A stretch of DNA of 64,000 bases from assembly GCA_964016885.1 (NCBI GenBank), contig OZ024762.1, positions 4,030,001 to 4,094,000 on the forward strand, read 5' to 3'. The stretch's first letter is position 1. Every line of letters begins with the position of its first letter. Positions 34,583 to 56,340 of the stretch are shown here, in pieces. This stretch comes from Eledone cirrhosa (taxonomy: Eukaryota). A program made the translations under genes and the position numbers. The notes beneath the pieces were generated by a model. That model was not told where the DNA came from. It made no database searches and was given only the letters and a program-made list of their open reading frames with translations.

Positions 34583-35566
34583 CACTGCTATAGGTTGAAC
34601 AAGGGACCACAGTTATAGGTTGAACAAGGGACCACTGCTATAGGTTGAACAAGGGACCACTGCTATAGGTTGAACAAGGGACCACAGCTATAGGTTGAAC
34701 AAGGGACCACAGCTATAGGTTGAACAAGGGACCACAGCTATAGGTTGAACAAGGGACCACAGCTATAGGTTGAACAAGGGACCACAGCTATAGGTTCACC
34801 AAGGGACCACAGCTATAGGTTGAACAAGGGACCACAGCTATAGGTTGAACAAGGGACCACAGCTATAGGTTCACCAAGGGACCACAGCTATAGGTTGAAC
34901 AAGGGACCACAGCTATAGGTTGAACAAGGGACCACAGCTATAGGTTGAACAAGGGACCACAGCTATAGGTTGAACAAGGGACCACAGCTATAGGTTGAAC
35001 AAGGGACCACAGCTATAGGTTGAACAAGGGACCACAGCTATAGGTTCACCAAGGGACCACAGCTATAGGTTGAACAAGGGACCACAGCTATAGGTTGAAC
35101 AAGGGACCACAGCTATAGGTTCACCAAGGGACCACAGCTATAGGTTGAACAAGGGACCACAGCTATAGGTTCACCAAGGGACCACAGCTATAGGTTCACC
35201 AAGGGACCACAGCTATAGGTTGAACAAGGGACCACAGCTATAGGTTCACCAAGGGACCACAGCTATAGGTTCACCAAGGGACCACAGCTATAGGTTGAAC
35301 AAGGGACCACAGCTATAGGTTCACCAAGGGACCACTGCTATAGGTTCACCAAGGGACCACAGCTATAGGTTGAACAAGGGACCACAGCTATAGGTTCACC
35401 AAGGGACCACAGCTATAGGTTCACCAAGGGACCACAGCTATAGGTTGAACAAGGGACCACAGCTATAGGTTGAACAAGGGACCACAGCTATAGGTTGAAC
35501 AAGGGACCACTGCTATAGGTTCACCAAGGGACCACAGCTATAGGTTGAACAAGGGACCACAGCTAT
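34583..35566. repeat. 25-bp minisatellite GCTATAGGTT(GAAC/CACC)AAGGGACCACA, ~39 copies
   Basis: Period 25 (ACCACAGCTA at 34681 and 34731 is two units apart); two interspersed variants. Confidence 0.95.
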
Positions 35567-39339: not shown

Positions 39340-39890
39340 TCATCATCATCATAATCGTTTTACGTCCGTTCTTCCACGCTAGCATGGGTTAGACAGGTTG
39401 TCCTGTTGTGGGCAGTGTCCGGTCAGCTGACCTTGTCTTGCTCATACAGGAACTGATTCTGGCTTCATTTCTACAGCTGGCTGCCCTTCCTAACACCAAC
39501 CTCACTTCTACAACTGGCTGCCCTTCCTAACACCAACCTCACTTCTACAGCTGGCTGCCCTTCCTAACACCAACCTCACTTCTACAGCTGGCTGCCCTTC
39601 CTAACACCAACCTCACTTCTACAGCTGGCTGCCCTTCCTAACACCAACCTCACTTCTACAACTGGCTGCCCTTCCTAACACCAACCTCACTTCTACAGCT
39701 GGCTGCCCTTCCTAACACCAACCTCACTTCTACAGCTGGCTGCCCTTCCTAACACCAACCTCACTTCTACAACTGAGTAAACTGGAGCGATGTGAAATAA
39801 AGTGAAACAACGCATCACCCGGTCCGAGAATTGAACTCACAACCTTTTGATTGCAAGCCCAATGCTCTAACCACTAAGACATGCACCTTT
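39340..39890 (-). mobile_element. tRNA-headed SINE with RTE-like (GAT)n tail, containing a 37-bp x ~8 internal array
   Basis: Tail CATCATCAT..CGTTTTACGTCCG; array TTCTACAGCTGGCTGCCCTTCCTAACACCAACCTCAC at 39468-39775; unexpanded relative at 41734-42075. Confidence 0.82.
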
Positions 39891-41214: not shown

Positions 41215-41243
41215 GGGTTAGGGTTAGGGTTAGGGTTAGGGTT
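41215..41243 (+). repeat. Short interstitial (TTAGGG)n
   Basis: (GGGTTA)4GGGTT. Confidence 0.8.
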
Positions 41244-41733: not shown

Positions 41734-42075
41734 TCATCATCATCATCATCATTTTACGTCCGCTTTTCCCTGCTTGTAAGGGTGGGACGGGAACTGGTTC
41801 TGGCTTGATTTCTACAGCAGCATGCCCTTCCTAACACCAACCTCATTTACAGTGAGTGCTGGGTGCTTTTTTTCCGTGGCACCTCCACGACCACTTTGCA
41901 GTGGAATGATAGGGACCCCAGTCCCTATCATCTCATTTCTACAGCTGAGTAAACTGGAGCAATGTGAAATAAAGTGTCTTGCTCAAGGAAACAACACATC
42001 ACCCGGTCTGAGAATTGAACTCACAACCTTTCGATTGCAAGCCCAACGCCCTAACCACTAAGCCAAGTGCCTCCA
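41734..42075 (-). mobile_element. tRNA-headed SINE with RTE-like tail
   Basis: rc head TGGAGGCACTTGGCTTAGTGGTTAGGGCG...GAGTTCAATTCTC; (GAT)n tail. Confidence 0.82.
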
Positions 42076-42303: not shown

Positions 42304-42446
42304 TATAAAAAAATATATTTCTATAAAAAATATATTTCTATAAAAAATATATTTCTATAAAAAATATATTTCTATAAAAAAATATATTTCTATAAAAAAT
42401 ATATTTCTATAAAAAATATATATTTCTATAAAAAAATATATTTCTA
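42304..42446. repeat. ~18-bp AT-rich minisatellite ATAAAAAAATATATTTCT x ~8
   Basis: Directly visible, at the 5' truncation point of the R4 fragment. Confidence 0.85.
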
Positions 42447-42449
42447 TCC

Positions 42450-42750
42450 GAGAGATAGAAATAACCCGAATGTGGAGGTTGAAGACAGAAACAATACCTA
42501 TAATTATAGGTGCTCTGGGAGTGATAAAAAAGCATGGACAAAGATACATCACCAAAACTCCAGGACTCACAAATATATACAGCATACAAAGAATAGCACT
42601 ACCGGGCATTGCACACATGATAGGAAGAGTACTCTCAATGCAGTGGAGCAAACACCACCAAAAACGACACGGCCCATACCCAACACGCACAGAACTACCC
42701 TTGGTAATGAAGTGATAACATGCAAAATAATAATAATAATAATAATAATA
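42450..42750 (+). mobile_element. R4/Dong-clade LINE 3' end (RLE domain) with (TAA)n tail
   Basis: EIEITRMWRLKTETIPIIIGALGVIKK...IQRIALPGIAHMIGRVL, followed by (TAA)n. Confidence 0.85.
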
Positions 42751-42871
42751 ATTGTTTCTACTTTTGGCACAAGGCCAGCAATTAATCAGTACATTACTGG
42801 TACTTTATTTTATCGACCCCGTAAGGATGAAAGGCAAAGTTAACCTCGGCGGGATTTGAACTCAGAATGGA
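42749..42871 (-). mobile_element. SINE family A, tail-to-tail with the R4 (TAA)n tail
   Basis: Family match; followed by a short fold-back of its own sequence at 42871-42896. Confidence 0.85.
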
Positions 42872-43171
42872 AATTCCGCTGAGGTTAACTTTGCCTATAT
42901 ATATAATATACACACTATATAGACACTATTTAACCCATTAGCATTTAAACTGGCCACATCCGGCCAGAACTCTCTCACCTGTCTCTGTTCAAGTTGGCCG
43001 TAACTGGCCGCTCGTACAGACGTTGTGGTATTTTTCTCGAAAAAGATAACATAAAAATCTCATAGATTTGATATTATGTGAGATAATTATGTAAGATAAA
43101 GTGTTTACCACAAAAATACAATAGTATATATAGAGTAATGTAAATGCTGAAAGGTTAACCAGCCCTGGAAA

Positions 43172-43465
43172 CATTTCGAGATAGTACCTAGTGCTCCTAT
43201 GATGATAGGGATGATCTTGATCTCATCACAGTCCCAAATCCTTTTTAATTCCTACTTTAAATCCTGGTACCAGTTAATTTTCTCCTTTTCCTTTTCTAAC
43301 ATTCTTGTGTGATAGGGGCAAGCTACATTTATAATCAAGCAAGATCTTTTTTCTTTGTCATAAACCATCAAGTCAGGCCTATTGTGATCTAATTCTTTGT
43401 TCGTTTGTATCTTGAAATCCCGTAGCACCTTCATCCAATCGGTTTCTATTACCGACTCTGGCTCA
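43172..43465 (-). mobile_element. R4/Dong-clade RLE-domain fragment
   Basis: KVLRDFKIQTNKELDHNRPDLMVYDKEKRSCLIINVACP...EKEKINWYQDLK...IIPIIIGALGTISK, a PD-(D/E)xK-type RLE. Confidence 0.85.
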
Positions 43466-43670
43466 ATGGACGTTAAACGACGGCGACGATTTGTTCAGTT
43501 TACATAAATGCCAGTGAATCACCTTTCCTATTAAATCATGCTTCCATCTTTTATAGTGAGTCTGGCCTTAGGTATTTACTCTCTGATACAATGTGAAGCA
43601 CAGTTTCCCCTCTCTCTCTCCACAGATCCTACAGAGCAGGCTAGCCTCCTCCTACATTATTATTATTATT

Positions 43671-43793
43671 ATTCTGAGTTCAAATCCCGCCGAGGTCAAC
43701 TTTGCCTTTCATCCTTACGGGGTCGATAAAATAAAGTACCAGTAATGTACTGGTTAATTGCAGGCCTTGTGCCAAAAGTAGAAACAATTATTA
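43671..43793 (+). mobile_element. SINE family A, 5'-truncated
   Basis: Family match; flanked by (TTA)n. Confidence 0.82.
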
Positions 43794-43829
43794 TAAAAGA
43801 ATATTATAGACATGTTATAATGGTGGTGA

Positions 43830-46800
43830 ATAGTGAGCTGAACTCCCAGAAAACACTGAATTGAAGCTATAAATTCCCTGGCTGTACCTGTTGTCCAGTA
43901 TAGTCTTATGTAATCAATTGGAATTTGAATGAACACCAACATATGGACATAAAAACTAGGAAACTGTTGACATTAAACAGGATGTAACAACAAAAAGCAG
44001 ACGTCCATAGGCCTTATCTTCCACGAAAAGAGGGCAGTAGTGGTCTAATCCAACTTGAAACATCCTATAAAAAGACATGATATGACTCCAAATGTACATC
44101 CAAAGTAACACCGAGTGGACAATACAGTTGGTAGGACAACAGGAATAGGGTAGGAAACTCCACCGAAAGCAGACATATTAATACAGACAAGAGCTTAACC
44201 TCCCTGATCAGGATGTTGATAATGAGGACATGCTACCCACTAAGGCAGCAAAAAGATGTAAAACAAAAGCCAAACAGGAAAGTTTGAAGGAAATGTCAAG
44301 ACTGTGGCAAGATAAACCATTGCAATAACACAAACAAGCTGGGGAAGCTGATGTAGATATGAAAAGGACCCATCAGTAATTGTATAGCACTGGTTTGAAA
44401 ACTGAAACACAAGGATTTATCCGAGCAGCACAAGATCAGAGTCTCCTCATGTAATCTATCAAGCTAATGTCTTGCAAAATGAGGCAGACACAAAGTGCAG
44501 ACTCTGTGATGACATGCTTGAGAACATTGACCACACTGTTGCCAATTGCTCAGTCCTTGCTCCTAGAGAATATAAAAACAGGCGTGATTGAGTTGGCCAA
44601 TACTTGCACTGGAGAATATGCCGGACCACTAAAAACTGATATGAACACCATCCACAGCCAGTCAACGAGGGAGAGAATGTTACTATCCTATGGGATTATG
44701 GGATACATACAGACAGGAAAATAAATGTTAACAGATCAGACAATGTTATCAAAGACCCAAGACAAAAAACATCCCTGTTAATTGAAATGGCAGTGACTAC
44801 TGACAGAACATCTCAGTGAAAGAATTTGAGGAACTATCTAAATACAAGGACCTTGAGATTAAGATAGATTAAAAATCACAATTATCCCCGTTGTTGTGGG
44901 TGCCCTAGGAATGATTAAGTGTTGTTGTGGGAGCCCTAGGAATGATCAAGTGTTGTTGTGGGAGCCCTAGGAATGATCAAGTGTTGTTGTGGGTGCCCTA
45001 GGAATGATCAAGTGTTGTTGTGGGAGCTCTAGGAATGATCAAGTGTTGTTGTGGGTGCCCTAGGAATGATCAAGTGTTGTTGTGGGTGCCCTAGGAATGA
45101 TCAAGTGTTGTTGTGGGAGCCCTAGGAATGATCAAGTGTTGTTGTGGGTGCCCTAGGAATGATCAAGTGTTGTTGTGGGAGCTCTAGGAATGATCAAGTG
45201 TTGTTGTGGGTGCCCTAGGAATGATCAAGTGTTGTTGTGGGTGCCCTAGGAATGATCAAGTGTTGTTGTGGGAGCCCTAGGAATGATCAAGTGTTGTTGT
45301 GGGTGCCCTAGGAATGATCAAGTGTTGTTGTGGGAGCTCTAGGAATGATCAAGTGTTGTTGTGGGAGCTCTAGGAATGATCAAGTGTTGTTGTGGGAGCT
45401 CTAGGAATGATCAAGTGTTGTTGTGGGAGCTCTAGGAATGATCAAGTGTTGTTGTGGGTGCCCTAGGAATGATCAAGTGTTGTTGTGGGAGCTCTAGGAA
45501 TGATCAAGTGTTGTTGTGGGAGCTCTAGGAATGATCAAGTGTTGTTGTGGGAGCTCTAGGAATGATCAAGTGTTGTTGTGGGAGCTCTAGGAATGATCAA
45601 GTGTTGTTGTGGGAGCTCTAGGAATGATCAAGTGTTGTTGTGGGAGCTCTAGGAATGATCAAGTGTTGTTGTGGGTGCCCTAGGAATGATCAAGTGTTGT
45701 TGTGGGAGCTCTAGGAATGATCAAGTGTTGTTGTGGGAGCTCTAGGAATGATCAAGTGTTGTTGTGGGAGCTCTAGGAATGATCAAGTGTTGTTGTGGGT
45801 GCCCTAGGAATGATCAAGTGTTGTTGTGGGAGCTCTAGGAATGATCAAGTGTTGTTGTGGGAGCTCTAGGAATGATCAAGTGTTGTTGTGGGAGCTCTAG
45901 GAATGATCAAGTGTTGTTGTGGGAGCTCTAGGAATGATCAAGTGTTGTTGTGGGAGCTCTAGGAATGATCAAGTGTTGTTGTGGGAGCTCTAGGAATGAT
46001 CAAGTGTTGTTGTGGGTGCCCTAGGAATGATCAAGTGTTGTTGTGGGAGCTCTAGGAATGATCAAGTGTTGTTGTGGGAGCTCTAGGAATGATCAAGTGT
46101 TGTTGTGGGAGCTCTAGGAATGATCAAGTGTTGTTGTGGGTGCCCTAGGAATGATCAAGTGTTGTTGTGGGTGCCCTAGGAATGATCAAGTGTTGTTGTG
46201 GGTGCCCTAGGAATGATCAAGTGTTGTTGTGGGAGCTCTAGGAATGATCAAGTGTTGTTGTGGGTGCCCTAGGAATGATCAAGTGTTGTTGTGGGTGCCC
46301 TAGGAATGATCAAGTGTTGTTGTGGGAGCTCTAGGAATGATCAAGTGTTGTTGTGGGTGCCCTAGGAATGATCAAGTGTTGTTGTGGGAGCTCTAGGAAT
46401 GATCAAGTGTTGTTGTGGGTGCCCTAGGAATGATCAAGTGTTGTTGTGGGTGCCCTAGGAATGATCAAGTGTTGTTGTGGGTGCCCTAGGAATGATCAAG
46501 TGTTGTTGTGGGAGCCCTAGGAATGATCAAGTGTTGTTGTGGGAGCCCTAGGAATGATTAAGTGTTGTTGTGGGAGCTCTAGGAATGATCAAGTGTTGTT
46601 GTGGGAGCTCTAGGAATGATCAAGTGTTGTTGTGGGTGCCCTAGGAATGATCAAGTGTTGTTGTGGGAGCCCTAGGAATGATTAAGTGTTGTTGTGGGAG
46701 CTCTAGGAATGATCAAGTGTTGTTGTGGGTGCCCTAGGAATGATCAAGTGTTGTTGTGGGAGCCCTAGGAATGATCAAGTGTTGTTGTGGGAGCCCTAGG

Positions 46801-49800
46801 AATGATTAAGTGTTGTTGTGGGAGCTCTAGGAATGATCAAGTGTTGTTGTGGGAGCTCTAGGAATGATCAAGTGTTGTTGTGGGTGCCCTAGGAATGATC
46901 AAGTGTTGTTGTGGGAGCCCTAGGAATGATTAAGTGTTGTTGTGGGAGCTCTAGGAATGATCAAGTGTTGTTGTGGGAGCTCTAGGAATGATCAAGTGTT
47001 GTTGTGGGAGCCCTAGGAATGATTAAGTGTTGTTGTGGGAGCTCTAGGAATGATCAAGTGTTGTTGTGGGAGCTCTAGGAATGATTAAGTGTTGTTGTGG
47101 GAGCTCTAGGAATGATCAAGTGTTGTTGTGGGAGCTCTAGGAATGATCAAGTGTTGTTGTGGGAGCTCTAGGAATGATCAAGTGTTGTTGTGGGAGCCCT
47201 AGGAATGATCAAGTGTTGTTGTGGGAGCTCTAGGAATGATCAAGTGTTGTTGTGGGTGCCCTAGGAATGATCAAGTGTTGTTGTGGGAGCTCTAGGAATG
47301 ATCAAGTGTTGTTGTGGGAGCCCTAGGAATGATTAAGTGTTGTTGTGGGAGCTCTAGGAATGATCAAGTGTTGTTGTGGGAGCTCTAGGAATGATCAAGT
47401 GTTGTTGTGGGAGCCCTAGGAATGATTAAGTGTTGTTGTGGGAGCTCTAGGAATGATCAAGTGTTGTTGTGGGAGCTCTAGGAATGATTAAGTGTTGTTG
47501 TGGGAGCTCTAGGAATGATCAAGTGTTGTTGTGGGTGCCCTAGGAATGATCAAGTGTTGTTGTGGGAGCTCTAGGAATGATCAAGTGTTGTTGTGGGAGC
47601 TCTAGGAATGATTAAGTGTTGTTGTGGGAGCTCTAGGAATGATCAAGTGTTGTTGTGGGAGCTCTAGGAATGATCAAGTGTTGTTGTGGGAGCTCTAGGA
47701 ATGATCAAGTGTTGTTGTGGGAGCTCTAGGAATGATCAAGTGTTGTTGTGGGAGCTCTAGGAATGATCAAGTGTTGTTGTGGGTGCCCTAGGAATGATCA
47801 AGTGTTGTTGTGGGAGCTCTAGGAATGATCAAGTGTTGTTGTGGGTGCCCTAGGAATGATCAAGTGTTGTTGTGGGAGCTCTAGGAATGATCAAGTGTTG
47901 TTGTGGGAGCCCTAGGAATAATTAAGTGTTGTTGTGGGTGCCCTAGGAATGATCAAGTGTTGTTGTGGGAGCTCTAGGAATGATCAAGTGTTGTTGTGGG
48001 AGCTCTAGGAATGATCAAGTGTTGTTGTGGGAGCCCTAGGAATAATTAAGTGTTGTTGTGGGTGCCCTAGGAATGATCAAGTGTTGTTGTGGGTGCCCTA
48101 GGAATGATCAAGTGTTGTTGTGGGAGCTCTAGGAATGATCAAGTGTTGTTGTGGGTGCCCTAGGAATGATCAAGTGTTGTTGTGGGTGCCCTAGGAATGA
48201 TCAAGTGTTGTTGTGGGAGCTCTAGGAATGATCAAGTGTTGTTGTGGGTGCCCTAGGAATGATCAAGTGTTGTTGTGGGTGCCCTAGGAATGATCAAGTG
48301 TTGTTGTGGGAGCTCTAGGAATGATCAAGTGTTGTTGTGGGTGCCCTAGGAATGATCAAGTGTTGTTGTGGGTGCCCTAGGAATGATCAAGTGTTGTTGT
48401 GGGAGCTCTAGGAATGATCAAGTGTTGTTGTGGGAGCCCTAGGAATAATTAAGTGTTGTTGTGGGTGCCCTAGGAATGATCAAGTGTTGTTGTGGGTGCC
48501 CTAGGAATGATCAAGTGTTGTTGTGGGTGCCCTAGGAATGATCAAGTGTTGTTGTGGGAGCTCTAGGAATGATCAAGTGTTGTTGTGGGTGCCCTAGGAA
48601 TAATTAAGTGTTGTTGTGGGTGCCCTAGGAATGATCAAGTGTTGTTGTGGGTGCCCTAGGAATAATTAAGTGTTGTTGTGGGTGCCCTAGGAATGATCAA
48701 GTGTTGTTGTGGGTGCCCTAGGAATAATTAAGTGTTGTTGTGGGAGCCCTAGGAATGATCAAGTGTTGTTGTGGGTGCCCTAGGAATGATCAAGTGTTGT
48801 TGTGGGTGCCCTAGGAATGATCAAGTGTTGTTGTGGGTGCCCTAGGAATAAATAAGTGTTGTTGTGGGTGCCCTAGGAATGATCAAGTGTTGTTGTGGGT
48901 GCCCTAGGAATAATTAAGTGTTGTTGTGGGTGCCCTAGGAATGATCAAGTGTTGTTGTGGGTGCCCTAGGAATAATTAAGTGTTGTTGTGGGTGCCCTAG
49001 GAATGATCAAGTGTTGTTGTGGGAGCCCTAGGAATAATTAAGTGTTGTTGTGGGTGCCCTAGGAATGATCAAGTGTTGTTGTGGGAGCCCTAGGAATGAT
49101 CAAGTGTTGTTGTGGGTGCCCTAGGAATGATCAAGTGTTGTTGTGGGTGCCCTAGGAATAATTAAGTGTTGTTGTGGGTGCCCTAGGAATGATCAAGTGT
49201 TGTTGTGGGTGCCCTAGGAATAATTAAGTGTTGTTGTGGGTGCCCTAGGAATGATCAAGTGTTGTTGTGGGTGCCCTAGGAATAATTAAGTGTTGTTGTG
49301 GGTGCCCTAGGAATGATCAAGTGTTGTTGTGGGAGCCCTAGGAATAATTAAGTGTTGTTGTGGGTGCCCTAGGAATGATCAAGTGTTGTTGTGGGTGCCC
49401 TAGGAATGATCAAGTGTTGTTGTGGGTGCCCTAGGAATAATTAAGTGTTGTTGTGGGTGCCCTAGGAATGATCAAGTGTTGTTGTGGGTGCCCTAGGAAT
49501 AATTAAGTGTTGTTGTGGGTGCCCTAGGAATGATCAAGTGTTGTTGTGGGAGCCCTAGGAATAATTAAGTGTTGTTGTGGGTGCCCTAGGAATGATCAAG
49601 TGTTGTTGTGGGTGCCCTAGGAATAATTAAGTGTTGTTGTGGGTGCCCTAGGAATGATCAAGTGTTGTTGTGGGAGCCCTAGGAATAATTAAGTGTTGTT
49701 GTGGGTGCCCTAGGAATGATCAAGTGTTGTTGTGGGTGCTCTAGGAATAATTAAGTGTTGTTGTGGGTGCCCTAGGAATGATCAAGTGTTGTTGTGGGTG

Positions 49801-52800
49801 CCCTAGGAATAATTAAGTGTTGTTGTGGGTGCCCTAGGAATGATCAAGTGTTGTTGTGGGAGCCCTAGGAATAATTAAGTGTTGTTGTGGGTGCCCTAGG
49901 AATGATCAAGTGTTGTTGTGGGTGCCCTAGGAATAATTAAGTGTTGTTGTGGGTGCCCTAGGAATGATCAAGTGTTGTTGTGGGAGCCCTAGGAATAATT
50001 AAGTGTTGTTGTGGGTGCCCTAGGAATGATCAAGTGTTGTTGTGGGTGCTCTAGGAATAATTAAGTGTTGTTGTGGGTGCCCTAGGAATGATCAAGTGTT
50101 GTTGTGGGAGCCCTAGGAATAATTAAGTGTTGTTGTGGGTGCCCTAGGAATGATCAAGTGTTGTTGTGGGTGCCCTAGGAATGATCAAGTGTTGTTGTGG
50201 GAGCCCTAGGAATGATCAAGTGTTGTTGTGGGTGCCCTAGGAATGATCAAGTGTTGTTGTGGGTGCCCTAGGAATGATCAAGTGTTGTTGTGGGTGCCCT
50301 AGGAATGATCAAGTGTTGTTGTGGGTGCTCTAGGAATAATTAAGTGTTGTTGTGGGTGCCCTAGGAATGATCAAGTGTTGTTGTGGGTGCTCTAGGAATA
50401 ATTAAGTGTTGTTGTGGGTGCCCTAGGAATGATCAAGTGTTGTTGTGGGTGCCCTAGGAATAATTAAGTGTTGTTGTGGGTGCCCTAGGAATGATCAAGT
50501 GTTGTTGTGGGAGCTCTAGGAATGATCAAGTGTTGTTGTGGGTGCTCTAGGAATAATTAAGTGTTGTTGTGGGTGCTCTAGGAATAATCAAGTGTTGTTG
50601 TGGGTGCCCTAGGAATGATTAAGTGTTGTTGTGGGTGCCCTAGGAATGATTAAGTGTTGTTGTGGGTGCCCTAGGAATGATCAAGTGTTGTTGTGGGAGC
50701 CCTAGGAATAATTAAGTGTTGTTGTGGGTGCCCTAGGAATGATTAAGTGTTGTTGTGGGTGCTCTAGGAATGATCAAGTGTTGTTGTGGGAGCCCTAGGA
50801 ATGATCAAGTGTTGTTGTGGGAGCTCTAGGAATGATCAAGTGTTGTTGTGGGTGCCCTAGGAATGATCAAGTGTTGTTGTGGGTGCTCTAGGAATGATCA
50901 AGTGTTGTTGTGGGTGCCCTAGGAATGATCAAGTGTTGTTGTGGGTGCCCTAGGAATGATCAAGTGTTGTTGTGGGTGCCCTAGGAATGATCAAGTGTTG
51001 TTGTGGGTGCTCTAGGAATGATCAAGTGTTGTTGTGGGTGCCCTAGGAATGATCAAGTGTTGTTGTGGGAGCTCTAGGAATGATCAAGTGTTGTTGTGGG
51101 AGCTCTAGGAATGATCAAGTGTTGTTGTGGGTGCCCTAGGAATGATCAAGTGTTGTTGTGGGTGCCCTAGGAATGATCAAGTGTTGTTGTGGGTGCCCTA
51201 GGAATGATTAAGTGTTGTTGTGGGTGCCCTAGGAATGATCAAGTGTTGTTGTGGGTGCTCTAGGAATGATCAAGTGTTGTTGTGGGTGCCCTAGGAATGA
51301 TCAAGTGTTGTTGTGGGTGCCCTAGGAATGATTAAGTGTTGTTGTGGGTGCCCTAGGAATGATCAAGTGTTGTTGGAGGTGCCCTAGGAATGATCAAGTG
51401 TTGTTGTGGGTGCCCTAGGAATGATCAAGTGTTGTTGTGGGTGCCCTAGGAATAATTAAGTGTTGTTGTGGGTGCTCTAGGAATGATCAAGTGTTGTTGT
51501 GGGTGCCCTAGGAATGATTAAGTGTTGTTGTGGGTGCCCTAGGAATGATCAAGTGTTGTTGTGGGTGCCCTAGGAATGATCAAGTGTTGTTGTGGGTGCC
51601 CTAGGAATGATTAAGTGTTGTTGTGGGTGCCCTAGGAATGATCAAGTGTTGTTGTGGGTGCCCTAGGAATGATCAAGTGTTGTTGTGGGAGCCCTAGGAA
51701 TGATCAAGTGTTGTTGTGGGTGCCCTAGGAATGATCAAGTGTTGTTGTGGGTGCCCTAGGAATGATTAAGTGTTGTTGTGGGTGCCCTAGGAATGATCAA
51801 GTGTTGTTGTGGGTGCCCTAGGAATGATCAAGTGTTGTTGTGGGTGCCCTAGGAATGATTAAGTGTTGTTGTGGGAGCCCTAGGAATGATCAAGTGTTGT
51901 TGGAGGTGCCCTAGGAATAATTAAGTGTTGTTGTGGGAGCCCTAGGAATGATTAAGTGTTGTTGTGGGTGCCCTAGGAATGATCAAGTGTTGTTGGAGGT
52001 GCCCTAGGAATAATTAAGTGTTGTTGTGGGAGCCCTAGGAATGATCAAGTGTTGTTGGAGGTGCCCTAGGAATGATCAAGTGTTGTTGTGGGTGCCCTAG
52101 GAATGATCAAGTGTTGTTGGAGGTGCCCTAGGAATAATTAAGTGTTGTTGTGGGAGCCCTAGGAATGATCAAGTGTTGTTGGAGGTGCCCTAGGAATAAT
52201 TAAGTGTTGTTGTGGGAGCCCTAGGAATGATCAAGTGTTGTTGGAGGTGCCCTAGGAATGATCAAGTGTTGTTGTGGGTGCCCTAGGAATGATCAAGTGT
52301 TGTTGGAGGTGCCCTAGGAATAATTAAGTGTTGTTGTGGGAGCCCTAGGAATGATCAAGTGTTGTTGGAGGTGCCCTAGGAATGATCAAGTGTTGTTGGA
52401 GGTGCCCTAGGAATAATTAAGTGTTGTTGTGGGAGCCCTAGGAATGATCAAGTGTTGTTGTGGGAGCCCTAGGAATGATCAAGTGTTGTTGTGGGTGCCC
52501 TAGGAATGATCAAGTGTTGTTGGAGGTGCCCTAGGAATAATTAAGTGTTGTTGTGGGAGCCCTAGGAATGATCAAGTGTTGTTGTGGGTGCCCTAGGAAT
52601 GATCAAGTGTTGTTGGAGGTGCCCTAGGAATGATTAAGTGTTGTTGTGGGAGCCCTAGGAATGATCAAGTGTTGTTGGAGGTGCCCTAGGAATAATTAAG
52701 TGTTGTTGTGGGAGCCCTAGGAATGATTAAGTGTTGTTGTGGGTGCCCTAGGAATGATCAAGTGTTGTTGGAGGTGCCCTAGGAATAATTAAGTGTTGTT

Positions 52801-55800
52801 GTGGGAGCCCTAGGAATGATCAAGTGTTGTTGGAGGTGCCCTAGGAATGATCAAGTGTTGTTGTGGGTGCCCTAGGAATGATCAAGTGTTGTTGGAGGTG
52901 CCCTAGGAATGATTAAGTGTTGTTGTGGGAGCCCTAGGAATGATCAAGTGTTGTTGGAGGTGCCCTAGGAATAATTAAGTGTTGTTGTGGGAGCCCTAGG
53001 AATGATTAAGTGTTGTTGTGGGTGCCCTAGGAATGATCAAGTGTTGTTGGAGGTGCCCTAGGAATAATTAAGTGTTGTTGTGGGAGCCCTAGGAATGATC
53101 AAGTGTTGTTGGAGGTGCCCTAGGAATAATTAAGTGTTGTTGTGGGAGCCCTAGGAATGATCAAGTGTTGTTGTGGGAGCCCTAGGAATGATCAAGTGTT
53201 GTTGTGGGTGCCCTAGGAATGATCAAGTGTTGTTGGAGGTGCCCTAGGAATAATTAAGTGTTGTTGTGGGAGCCCTAGGAATGATCAAGTGTTGTTGTGG
53301 GTGCCCTAGGAATGATCAAGTGTTGTTGGAGGTGCCCTAGGAATAATTAAGTGTTGTTGTGGGTGCCCTAGGAATGATCAAGTGTTGTTGTGGGTGCCCT
53401 AGGAATGATCAAGTGTTGTTGTGGGTGCTCTAGGAATGATCAAGTGTTGTTGTGGGTGCTCTAGGAATGATCAAGTGTTGTTGTGGGTGCCCTAGGAATG
53501 ATCAAGTGTTGTTGTGGGTGCTCTAGGAATGATCAAGTGTTGTTGTGGGTGCCCTAGGAATGATTAAGTGTTGTTGTGGGTGCCCTAGGAATGATCAAGT
53601 GTTGTTGTGGGTGCCCTAGGAATGATCAAGTGTTGTTGTGGGTGCTCTAGGAATGATCAAGTGTTGTTGTGGGTGCCCTAGGAATGATCAAGTGTTGTTG
53701 TGGGTGCTCTAGGAATGATCAAGTGCAAGTGTTGTTGTGGGTGCCCTAGGAATGATCAAGTGTTGTTGTGGGTGCCCTAGGAATGATCAAGTGTTGTTGT
53801 GGGTGCCTCTAGGAATGATCAAGTGTTGTTGTGGGTGCCTAGGAATGATCAAGTGTTGTTGTGGGTGCCCTAGGAATGATCAAGTGTTGTTGTGGGTGCC
53901 CTAGGAATGATCAAGTGTTGTTGTGGGTGCCCTAGGAATGATCAAGTGTTGTTGTGGGTGCTCTAGGAATGATCAAGTGTTGTTGTGGGTGCCCTAGGAA
54001 TGATCAAGTGTTGTTGTGGGTGCCTAGGAATGATCAAGTGTTGTTGTGGGTGCCCTAGGAATGATCAAGTGTTGTTGTGGGAGCCCTAGGAATGATCAAG
54101 TGTTGTTGTGGGTGCCCTAGGAATGATCAAGTGTTGTTGTGGGTGCTCTAGGAATGATCAAGTGTTGTTGTGGGTGCCCTAGGAATGATCAAGTGTTGTT
54201 GTGGTGCCTAGGAATGATCAGTGTTGTTGTGGGTGCCCTAGGAATGATCAAGTGTTGTTGTGGGTGCTCTAGGAATGATCAAGTGTTGTTGTGGGTGCCC
54301 TAGGAATGATCAAGTGTTGTTGTGGGTGCTCTAGGAATGATCAAGTGTTGTTGTGGGTGCCCTAGGAATGATCAAGTGTGTTGTGGGTGCCTAGGAATGA
54401 TCAAGTGTTGTTGTGGGTGCCCTAGGAATGATCAAGTGTTGTTGTGGGAGCCCTAGGAATGATCAAGTGTTGTTGTGGGAGCCCTAGGAATGATTAAGTG
54501 TTGTTGTGGGTGCCCTAGGAATGATAAGTGTTGTTGTGGGAGCCCTAGGAATGATTAAGTGTTGTTGTGGGAGCCCTAGGAATGATCAAGTGTTGTTGTG
54601 GGAGCCCTAGGAATAATTAAGTGTTGTTGTGGGAGCCCTAGGAATGATTAAGTGTTGTTGTGGGAGCCCTAGGAATGATTAAGTGTTGTTGTGGGTGCCC
54701 TAGGAATGATTAAGTGTTGTTGTGGGTGCCCTAGGAATGATTAAGTGTTGTTGTGGGAGCCCTAGGAATGATCAAGTGTTGTTGTGGGAGCCCTAGGAAT
54801 GATCAAGTGTTGTTGTGGGAGCCCTAGGAATGATCAAGTGTTGTTGTGGGTGCCCTAGGAATGATCAAGTGTTGTTGTGGGAGCCCTAGGAATGATTAAG
54901 TGTTGTTGTGGGTGCCCTAGGAATGATTAAGTGTTGTTGTGGGAGCCCTAGGAATGATCAAGTGTTGTTGTGGGTGCCCTAGGAATGATCAAGTGTTGTT
55001 GTGGGAGCCCTAGGAATGATTAAGTGTTGTTGTGGGTGCCCTAGGAATGATTAAGTGTTGTTGTGGGTGCCCTAGGAATGATTAAGTGTTGTTGTGGGAG
55101 CCCTAGGAATGATCAAGTGTTGTTGTGGGAGCCCTAGGAATAATTAAGTGTTGTTGTGGGAGCCCTAGGAATGATCAAGTGTTGTTGTGGGAGCCCTAGG
55201 AATAATTAAGTGTTGTTGTGGGTGCCCTAGGAATGATTAAGTGTTGTTGTGGGAGCCCTAGGAATGATTAAGTGTTGTTGTGGGTGCCCTAGGAATGATT
55301 AAGTGTTGTTGTGGGTGCCCTAGGAATGATTAAGTGTTGTTGTGGGAGCCCTAGGAATGATTAAGTGTTGTTGTGGGAGCCCTAGGAATGATTAAGTGTT
55401 GTTGTGGGTGCCCTAGGAATGATTAAGTGTTGTTGTGGGTGCCCTAGGAATGATTAAGTGTTGTTGTGGGAGCCCTAGGAATGATCAAGTGTTGTTGTGG
55501 GAGCCCTAGGAATAATTAAGTGTTGTTGTGGGAGCCCTAGGAATGATCAAGTGTTGTTGTGGGAGCCCTAGGAATAATTAAGTGTTGTTGTGGGTGCCCT
55601 AGGAATGATTAAGTGTTGTTGTGGGAGCCCTAGGAATGATTAAGTGTTGTTGTGGGTGCCCTAGGAATGATTAAGTGTTGTTGTGGGTGCCCTAGGAATG
55701 ATTAAGTGTTGTTGTGGGAGCCCTAGGAATGATTAAGTGTTGTTGTGGGAGCCCTAGGAATGATTAAGTGTTGTTGTGGGTGCCCTAGGAATGATTAAGT

Positions 55801-56340
55801 GTTGTTGGAGGTGCCCTAGGAATGATTAAGTGTTGTTGTGGGAGCACTAGGAATGATCAAGTGTTGTTGGAGGTGCCCTAGGAATGGTCAAGTGTTGTTG
55901 TGGGTGCCCTAGGAATGATTAAGTGTTGTTGTGGGTGCCCTAGGAATGATCAAGTGTTGTTGTGGGAGCCCTAGGAATAATTAAGTGTTGTTGTGGGTGC
56001 CCTAGGAATGATCAAGTGTTGTTGTGGGAGCCCTAGGAATGATCAAGTGTTGTTGTGGGTGCTCTAGGAATGATCAAGTGTTGTTGTGGGAGCCCTAGGA
56101 ATGATTAAGTGTTGTTGGAGGTGCCCTAGGAATGGTCAAGAAAGGCACCAACTAATTCATTGACCAGGTCCAAAGGAAACAACAATCTATGAGGTTCAAA
56201 ATAATTGTTCTAACTTCAACCATTCTCCTTCTCAGGAAACCTCTCTGTCTGATGTGTACATGCTTCAGGCCTCTGCTTGAGACCTGGTTGGAAGATGAAA
56301 TAAAATGGAAATCAAATGAAAAAAAAAAAAAAAAAAAAAA
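43830..56340 (+). mobile_element. Decayed R4/Dong-clade LINE (RT thumb, CCHC knuckle, RLE, poly-A) split by an 11.25-kb satellite
   Basis: AINSLAVPVVQY..DIKTRKLLT..YLPRKEG..GL; CRLCDDMLENIDHTVANC; LWDYGIHTDRKI..NRSD; IIPVVVGALGMIK [array] KGTN..IVLTST..LLRK; poly-A at 56319-56340; many stops and frameshifts. Confidence 0.9.
44890..56140. repeat. 31-bp satellite GTTGTTGTGGGTGCCCTAGGAATGATCAAGT, ~363 copies
   Basis: Period 31 (units at 44890 and 44921); the unit is the LINE codons for VVVGALGMIK plus one T. Confidence 0.97.

Follow-up and report, generated by a model that had tools for sequence, protein, structure and literature searches.

The window analyzed here, a stretch of 64,000 nucleotides from the Eledone cirrhosa contig OZ024762.1, contains a tandem array of about 11 kb that has replaced a single PVVVGALGMIK segment in the decayed remains of a 5'-truncated LINE. 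We regard this array as an ordinary TE-derived satellite. Its variants would be the product of neutral mutation at this one locus, in a short, older duplication amplified at a later time, and their lean toward third codon positions would be due to chance. We put the probability of this one-locus reading at roughly two in three.

Extent of the Array and Support in Reads

44889..56140, plus strand: 31-nt tandem array, 363 units with 18 haplotypes (the commonest unit is found, e.g., at 44982-45012)
44889..44919, plus strand: first unit, in the frame of the left flank, with a private C at position 1 and a T at position 28
53693..54528, plus strand: block holding all seven units with indels (units 285-311)
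55800..56140, plus strand: last 11 units, which carry all six recurrent variants (from the haplotype string)

Each unit begins with the final base of a Pro codon, followed by the ten codons VVVGALGMIK. Exactly 31 nt are found in 356 of the 363 units, and indels in the other seven. Position 1 of the unit is the Pro codon's third base, and all counts are taken over the 356 full-length units. The initial annotation had described the unit as coding sequence of the LINE that keeps the frame of both flanks, and this is what we find: the frame runs on from the left flank into the first unit, and the last unit leads in frame into the KGTN of the right flank. That last unit bears both TG>GA and A26G. 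The polarity of the variants at 55800-56140 suggests that homogenisation has gone least far at the right end of the array. The TE homology of the monomer is seen in proteins as well, where the PVVVGALGMIK motif occurs in 101 of 120 close homologues.

The array is real DNA and no assembly artefact. In two short-read runs of one sample, contigs of the array have word depths of 975 and 1605, and single relatives have depths of about 6 and 10; the loose ends of the array contigs continue into the next unit. The array depth is about 157 times the median of the eight single relatives listed per run, so the short reads back at least about 157 copies. This depth is compatible with one locus, and a second array is not needed to account for it. 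The cluster of indel units at 53693-54528 is possibly a read or assembly error, its pattern being as from a noisy long read.

The Host LINE and Its Decay

43792..44888, plus strand: left flank, a 5'-truncated, decayed RLE-type LINE from the post-RT region through a CCHC knuckle and a restriction-like endonuclease to the Pro codon
56141..56340, plus strand: right flank, with the end of the ORF (one stop), a short 3' UTR and poly(A) at 56319-56340, followed by TAATAA

Aligned with the full-length RT protein P0020, the left flank corresponds to residues 716-1099, with nine stops and six frameshifts over 1.14 kb of flank, and the right flank covers the last 45 residues with one stop. A HMMER search finds 2273 homologues of the left flank at E<=0.001; the decayed copy gave no matches in word-based protein searches, whereas HMMER, or a closer intact relative as query, did. 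The RT domain is absent from this truncated copy, and RVT_1 is present in all three full-length homologues scanned. The zf-RVT match in the left flank is weak (E 0.004), a CCHC knuckle (C-x2-C-x8-H-x4-C) lies at about 44496-44552, and the PD..D motif of the homologues' restriction-like endonuclease is present in decayed form. P0020 also matches solved R2 proteins (E 5e-28). The R4/Dong clade prefers TAA-repeat targets; the element and both neighboring copies in the window adjoin TAA/ATT runs, and no target-site duplication is seen. Judged by the CCHC knuckle and decayed endonuclease at the end of its ORF, its poly(A)/TAATAA end and the R2-protein matches of its homologues, the element appears to resemble LINEs of the R4/Dong type. 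Relatives of its 3' UTR (56268-56315) are numerous in the contigs of a related organism, where their depths sum to about 5000, and the likely host species has several as well.

Eighteen of 54 conserved flank residues are altered, which corresponds to a decay of about 16-18%, possibly an overestimate since the reference homologues come from other organisms. The consensus unit keeps five of five conserved residues and is thus better preserved than the flanks; at 13-16% decay, the chance that a unit has no disruptive change is 0.08-0.13. The decayed flanks speak for the one-locus reading, and the intact consensus peptide speaks against it.

Variants and Codon Positions

Nine positions of the unit are variable, with 9 and 10 linked, and the remaining 22 of 31 are invariant.

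Position 1: C, confined to the first unit
Positions 9 and 10: TG>GA (GTG>GGA) in 24 units, 6.7%
Position 13: T in 210 units, A in 146
Position 16: C in 269, T in 86, A in 1
Position 25: G in 303, A in 53
Position 26: A in 354, G in 2
Position 27: variant in one unit
Position 28: C in 249, T in 107

There are three singleton alleles among the 356 units, and the third positions 4, 7, 19, 22 and 31 show no variation across the array. Our per-position tabulation contains all the variant sites named in the initial annotation (GGT/GGA, GCC/GCT/GCA, ATC/ATT and ATG/ATA), every one at a third position. The chance of about 1% that had been assigned to this pattern can be reproduced for the four named sites (4/4, p = 0.007-0.010). 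However, that figure omits the GTG>GGA variant, and with it the p-value lies between 0.013 and 0.056. Third positions account for five of six common sites (p = 0.013), five of seven recurrent sites (p = 0.037), six of nine sites overall (p = 0.029) and, if position 1 is dropped, five of eight (p = 0.056). Base composition is rejected as the cause, the G+C count being 5/11 at third and 10/20 at other consensus positions.

The synonymous excess is the proper test, because alleles of active templates should be synonymous. It is not significant, for either the recurrent events (3/6, p = 0.31) or all events (5/9, p = 0.12), in a test that rests on six to nine events and has low power. Changes tolerated by homologues make up 5/6 (p = 0.095) and 7/9 (p = 0.075). 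The excess claimed for third positions is therefore present as a lean that is real, statistically weak and spotted post hoc, but it does not extend to a significant excess of synonymous changes. The first part of this result counts against the one-locus reading and the second part in its favor. A literature search, covering mainly openly available texts, met no paper that matched in full a query on codon-position bias in TE-derived arrays.

The lean would also follow if the array had started from two, or at most a few, founder units copied from the RNAs of different active subfamilies, the reverse transcriptase having jumped between them with a 31-nt overlap during insertion. Synonymous differences at positions 1, 13, 28 and perhaps 16 would later have been amplified and recombined, and the remaining variants would be later mutations. 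Several observations agree with this. Between units 1 and 2 there are three differences, every one synonymous, which is also a point against the one-locus reading. The consensus peptide is intact, and the codon-position tests given above lean the same way, with a best-case likelihood ratio of 6-12 for a free third-position rate. In six records from a related organism, the alignment begins at the T of position 1 and the loose ends upstream of it continue as normal coding sequence; it follows that this T was templated and that the junction has no microhomology. The accessible text of PMC2718515 describes the R2 polymerase as capable of template jumps. However, the anchored first and last units both read T13, C16 and G25 and are not the two haplotypes predicted, and two founders of the same age as the flanks would by now be expected to differ through decay at about four to six non-third positions, of which two recurrent ones are seen. 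Moreover, the jumping described in that text is end-to-end rather than internal, and ordinary tandem arrays are frequent in the window, which makes the prior low. We therefore consider two founders unlikely, though they deserve to be kept in view.

Other Copies of the Motif

42428..42752, plus strand: 3' fragment from another RLE LINE family, with (TAA)n at its end, PIIIGALGVIK in single copy and 10/31 differences from the unit
43153..43655, minus strand: fragment of a third RLE LINE family, with PIIIGALGTIS in single copy and 13/31 differences from the unit

The neighboring copies read GGT GCT at 42509 and GGA GCA at 43197-43192 (minus strand), in agreement with the initial annotation, which had gone on to propose such copies as templates of the array units. 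As templates they must be rejected at 10 and 13 differences from the unit, of which just 2/10 and 3/13 are bases that also occur in the array. A pattern scan of metagenomes yields six further relatives with 8-10 differences each from the unit; these are distant, and none is a paralog. Ten of the 11 third positions vary among them, the eleventh being fixed by the search pattern, and for this reason we attach little importance to codons shared with other copies. The idea that other copies might be arrayed at the same motif is not borne out in a small sample, with a single unit in both neighbors (2/2), in all six metagenome loci (6/6) and in the six related-organism records.

The proposal that all array variants are alleles of paralogs is not supported by the protein columns, counted in the 101 motif-bearing members of the 120 close homologues. 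Gly at the GTG>GGA column occurs in 0 of 101 homologues (and in 0 of 52 of a second, more distant set); the Met column has Ile in four of 101, and the Ile column has Val in 22 of 101. GTG>GGA thus appears to be no allele of an active element, because Gly is never found there among these homologues, and this absence favors mutation at one locus.

Repeated conversion of units after insertion, by dispersed paralogs or by cDNA of a still-active relative, would account for both the intact consensus and the third-position variants, and paralog-templated repair is one of the routes to TE-derived repeats listed in the accessible part of PMC9659126. However, among the matches listed for the likely host species, the 3'-end relatives are about 10-20% different and of single-copy depth, and no contig in the two runs spans the motif and downstream flank at >=80%, although such coverage holes prove nothing. 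Donors as distant as these would bring several linked differences per tract, but the haplotypes lie at most four bases from the consensus with the 22 invariant positions noted above; the neighboring copies are excluded as donors as well. This route seems to us highly improbable.

Other repeats lie around the two neighboring copies. A SINE-like repeat forms 124-nt inverted arms at 42745-42868 and 43671-43794, which are 98% complementary, 802 nt apart and each bordered by TAA/ATT runs. Past the poly(A) of the host LINE, at about 56345, lies another copy of this repeat, the third, with greater divergence. There is a 26-nt hairpin at 42832-42896. By eye, 42931-43158 is a short MITE-like element bounded by TTAA, with terminal inverted repeats that are imperfect; it was missed by the repeat finder and adjoins the minus-strand LINE fragment where the 3' end of the latter is truncated. 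Farther upstream, an array of eight 37-nt units (39465-39775) resembles, by eye, a dispersed repeat near 41810-41842 and is likely a second repeat-derived array, and a short internal run of the telomere-type repeat TTAGGG lies at 41216-41242.

Growth of the Array

Variants of the array are nested and regionally distributed. The 25A allele lies on 28T in 52 of 53 units, 26G occurs only with GA, and 16A lies on 13A. Along the array, 25A first appears at unit 98 and GA at unit 210, while the 13A-16T type is concentrated in the first 105 units. All four gametes are present in eight of 15 variant pairs. Identical runs of 15, 14 and 11 units repeat at offsets of 11, 12 and 10 units, i.e., by block copying in stretches of 10-12 units; in 30 shuffled controls the longest repeated run has a mean of 8 and a maximum of 11. 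The nesting, the regional spread, the block repeats and the four gametes all favor the one-locus reading.

The insertion is much older than the expansion, because the flanks have decayed by about 16% and the units show three singleton alleles. The same facts contradict the suggestion that iterative reverse-transcriptase jumping was the source of many units, since the units are nearly without private changes in a copy with such flanks. The initial annotation had also argued against point mutation of one seed. This holds for mutation confined to the expansion: simulations with one seed and mutation only during growth (four settings, 60 runs each) give 0.0-0.1 common sites against the six observed, and that model is rejected. 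The variants therefore predate the main expansion. The argument does not reach further, however, to mutation that preceded growth. Variants older than the expansion are also what two founders would give.

Two-phase neutral simulations, in which 2-8 old units with 5-10% divergence are subsequently expanded, match the observed counts (variable sites, haplotypes, singletons, pairs with all four gametes) in 21-47% of runs. We count this in favor of the one-locus reading, while the use of six hand-chosen, unfitted settings (150 runs each) counts against it. All but one of the common sites fall at third positions in only 1.4% of 277 comparable neutral runs, which, like the likelihood ratio given above, counts against this reading. 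A second array in the window serves as a control: at 34583-35566, a 25-nt unit repeated 39 times has the same architecture, with four variable sites, two of which always change jointly (a linked double change in 13 units), and has no match to RLE-LINE proteins. The existence of this look-alike is a further point for the one-locus reading.

The codon pattern could be mimicked, too, if sequence context steered mutation, the unit being 3-periodic with short palindromes and thus open to out-of-register template switching, with changes 3 nt apart as the outcome. At positions 8-11 the TG>GA allele reads GGAG, the same four letters that the 13A allele has at positions 11-14, a shift of 3 nt. In the presence of 13A, 16T completes a 6-nt palindrome, as does 25A in the presence of 28T, and such palindromes allow adjacent units to pair. 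However, the pattern was noticed post hoc, 8/93 changes on such backgrounds create a new 6-nt palindrome, and folding energies are no better than those of shuffled sequences (z from -0.6 to +1.0 in 4/4 stretches). We doubt this explanation strongly. By the same folding energies, hairpin selection is rejected as the main cause.

For the one-locus reading, we propose the following course. An initial 31-nt duplication without junction microhomology would have been followed by a long phase as few units, in which some six to nine substitutions collected. A recent expansion by slippage or unequal exchange, with breakpoints within units, would then have recombined left-half and right-half alleles. 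The codons would have been under no selection at any stage after insertion.

Relation to Known Systems

Satellites derived from LINE ORFs are already known, and the array described here is another case. According to the accessible part of PMC9659126, HinfI comes from CR1 ORF2, and PROsat and Pvc20 come from L1 ORF2; retrotransposon-derived arrays are also described in the part of PMC7004042 available to us. The present array resembles the satellites of the former source, as far as they are described there, in the head-to-tail amplification of a piece of an ORF, in its common variants and in its higher-order blocks. In contrast to them, it still sits inside the parent copy, whose two flanks remain in frame, its unit is short (31 nt), its parent is of the RLE type and its depth fits one locus.

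Dong-R4 LINEs are abundant in coleoid cephalopods, as stated in the accessible parts of PMC8967140, PMC13282606 and PMC9115989. The element shares with LINEs of this kind a CCHC knuckle and restriction-like endonuclease at the end of the ORF, which in full-length members is a single RT ORF, and poly(A) beside TAA repeats; unlike them it is 5'-truncated and dead, and it is likened to them by domain order and 3' end. The R2 enzyme, whose jumping is covered by the part of PMC2718515 at hand, is a related RLE-class RT. Such jumping could yield a duplication without microhomology, but R2's jumps take place end-to-end at junctions and would not give hundreds of near-identical units in a copy that has decayed by about 16%.

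This locus provides a clean case of a satellite caught in its parent LINE, which should be useful for studies of the birth and turnover of arrays. If an origin from two templates were true, template switching by reverse transcriptase could found a satellite, and the variants of the satellite would preserve synonymous differences of extinct master elements or subfamilies. Such a route to satellite birth would be directly testable across genomes.
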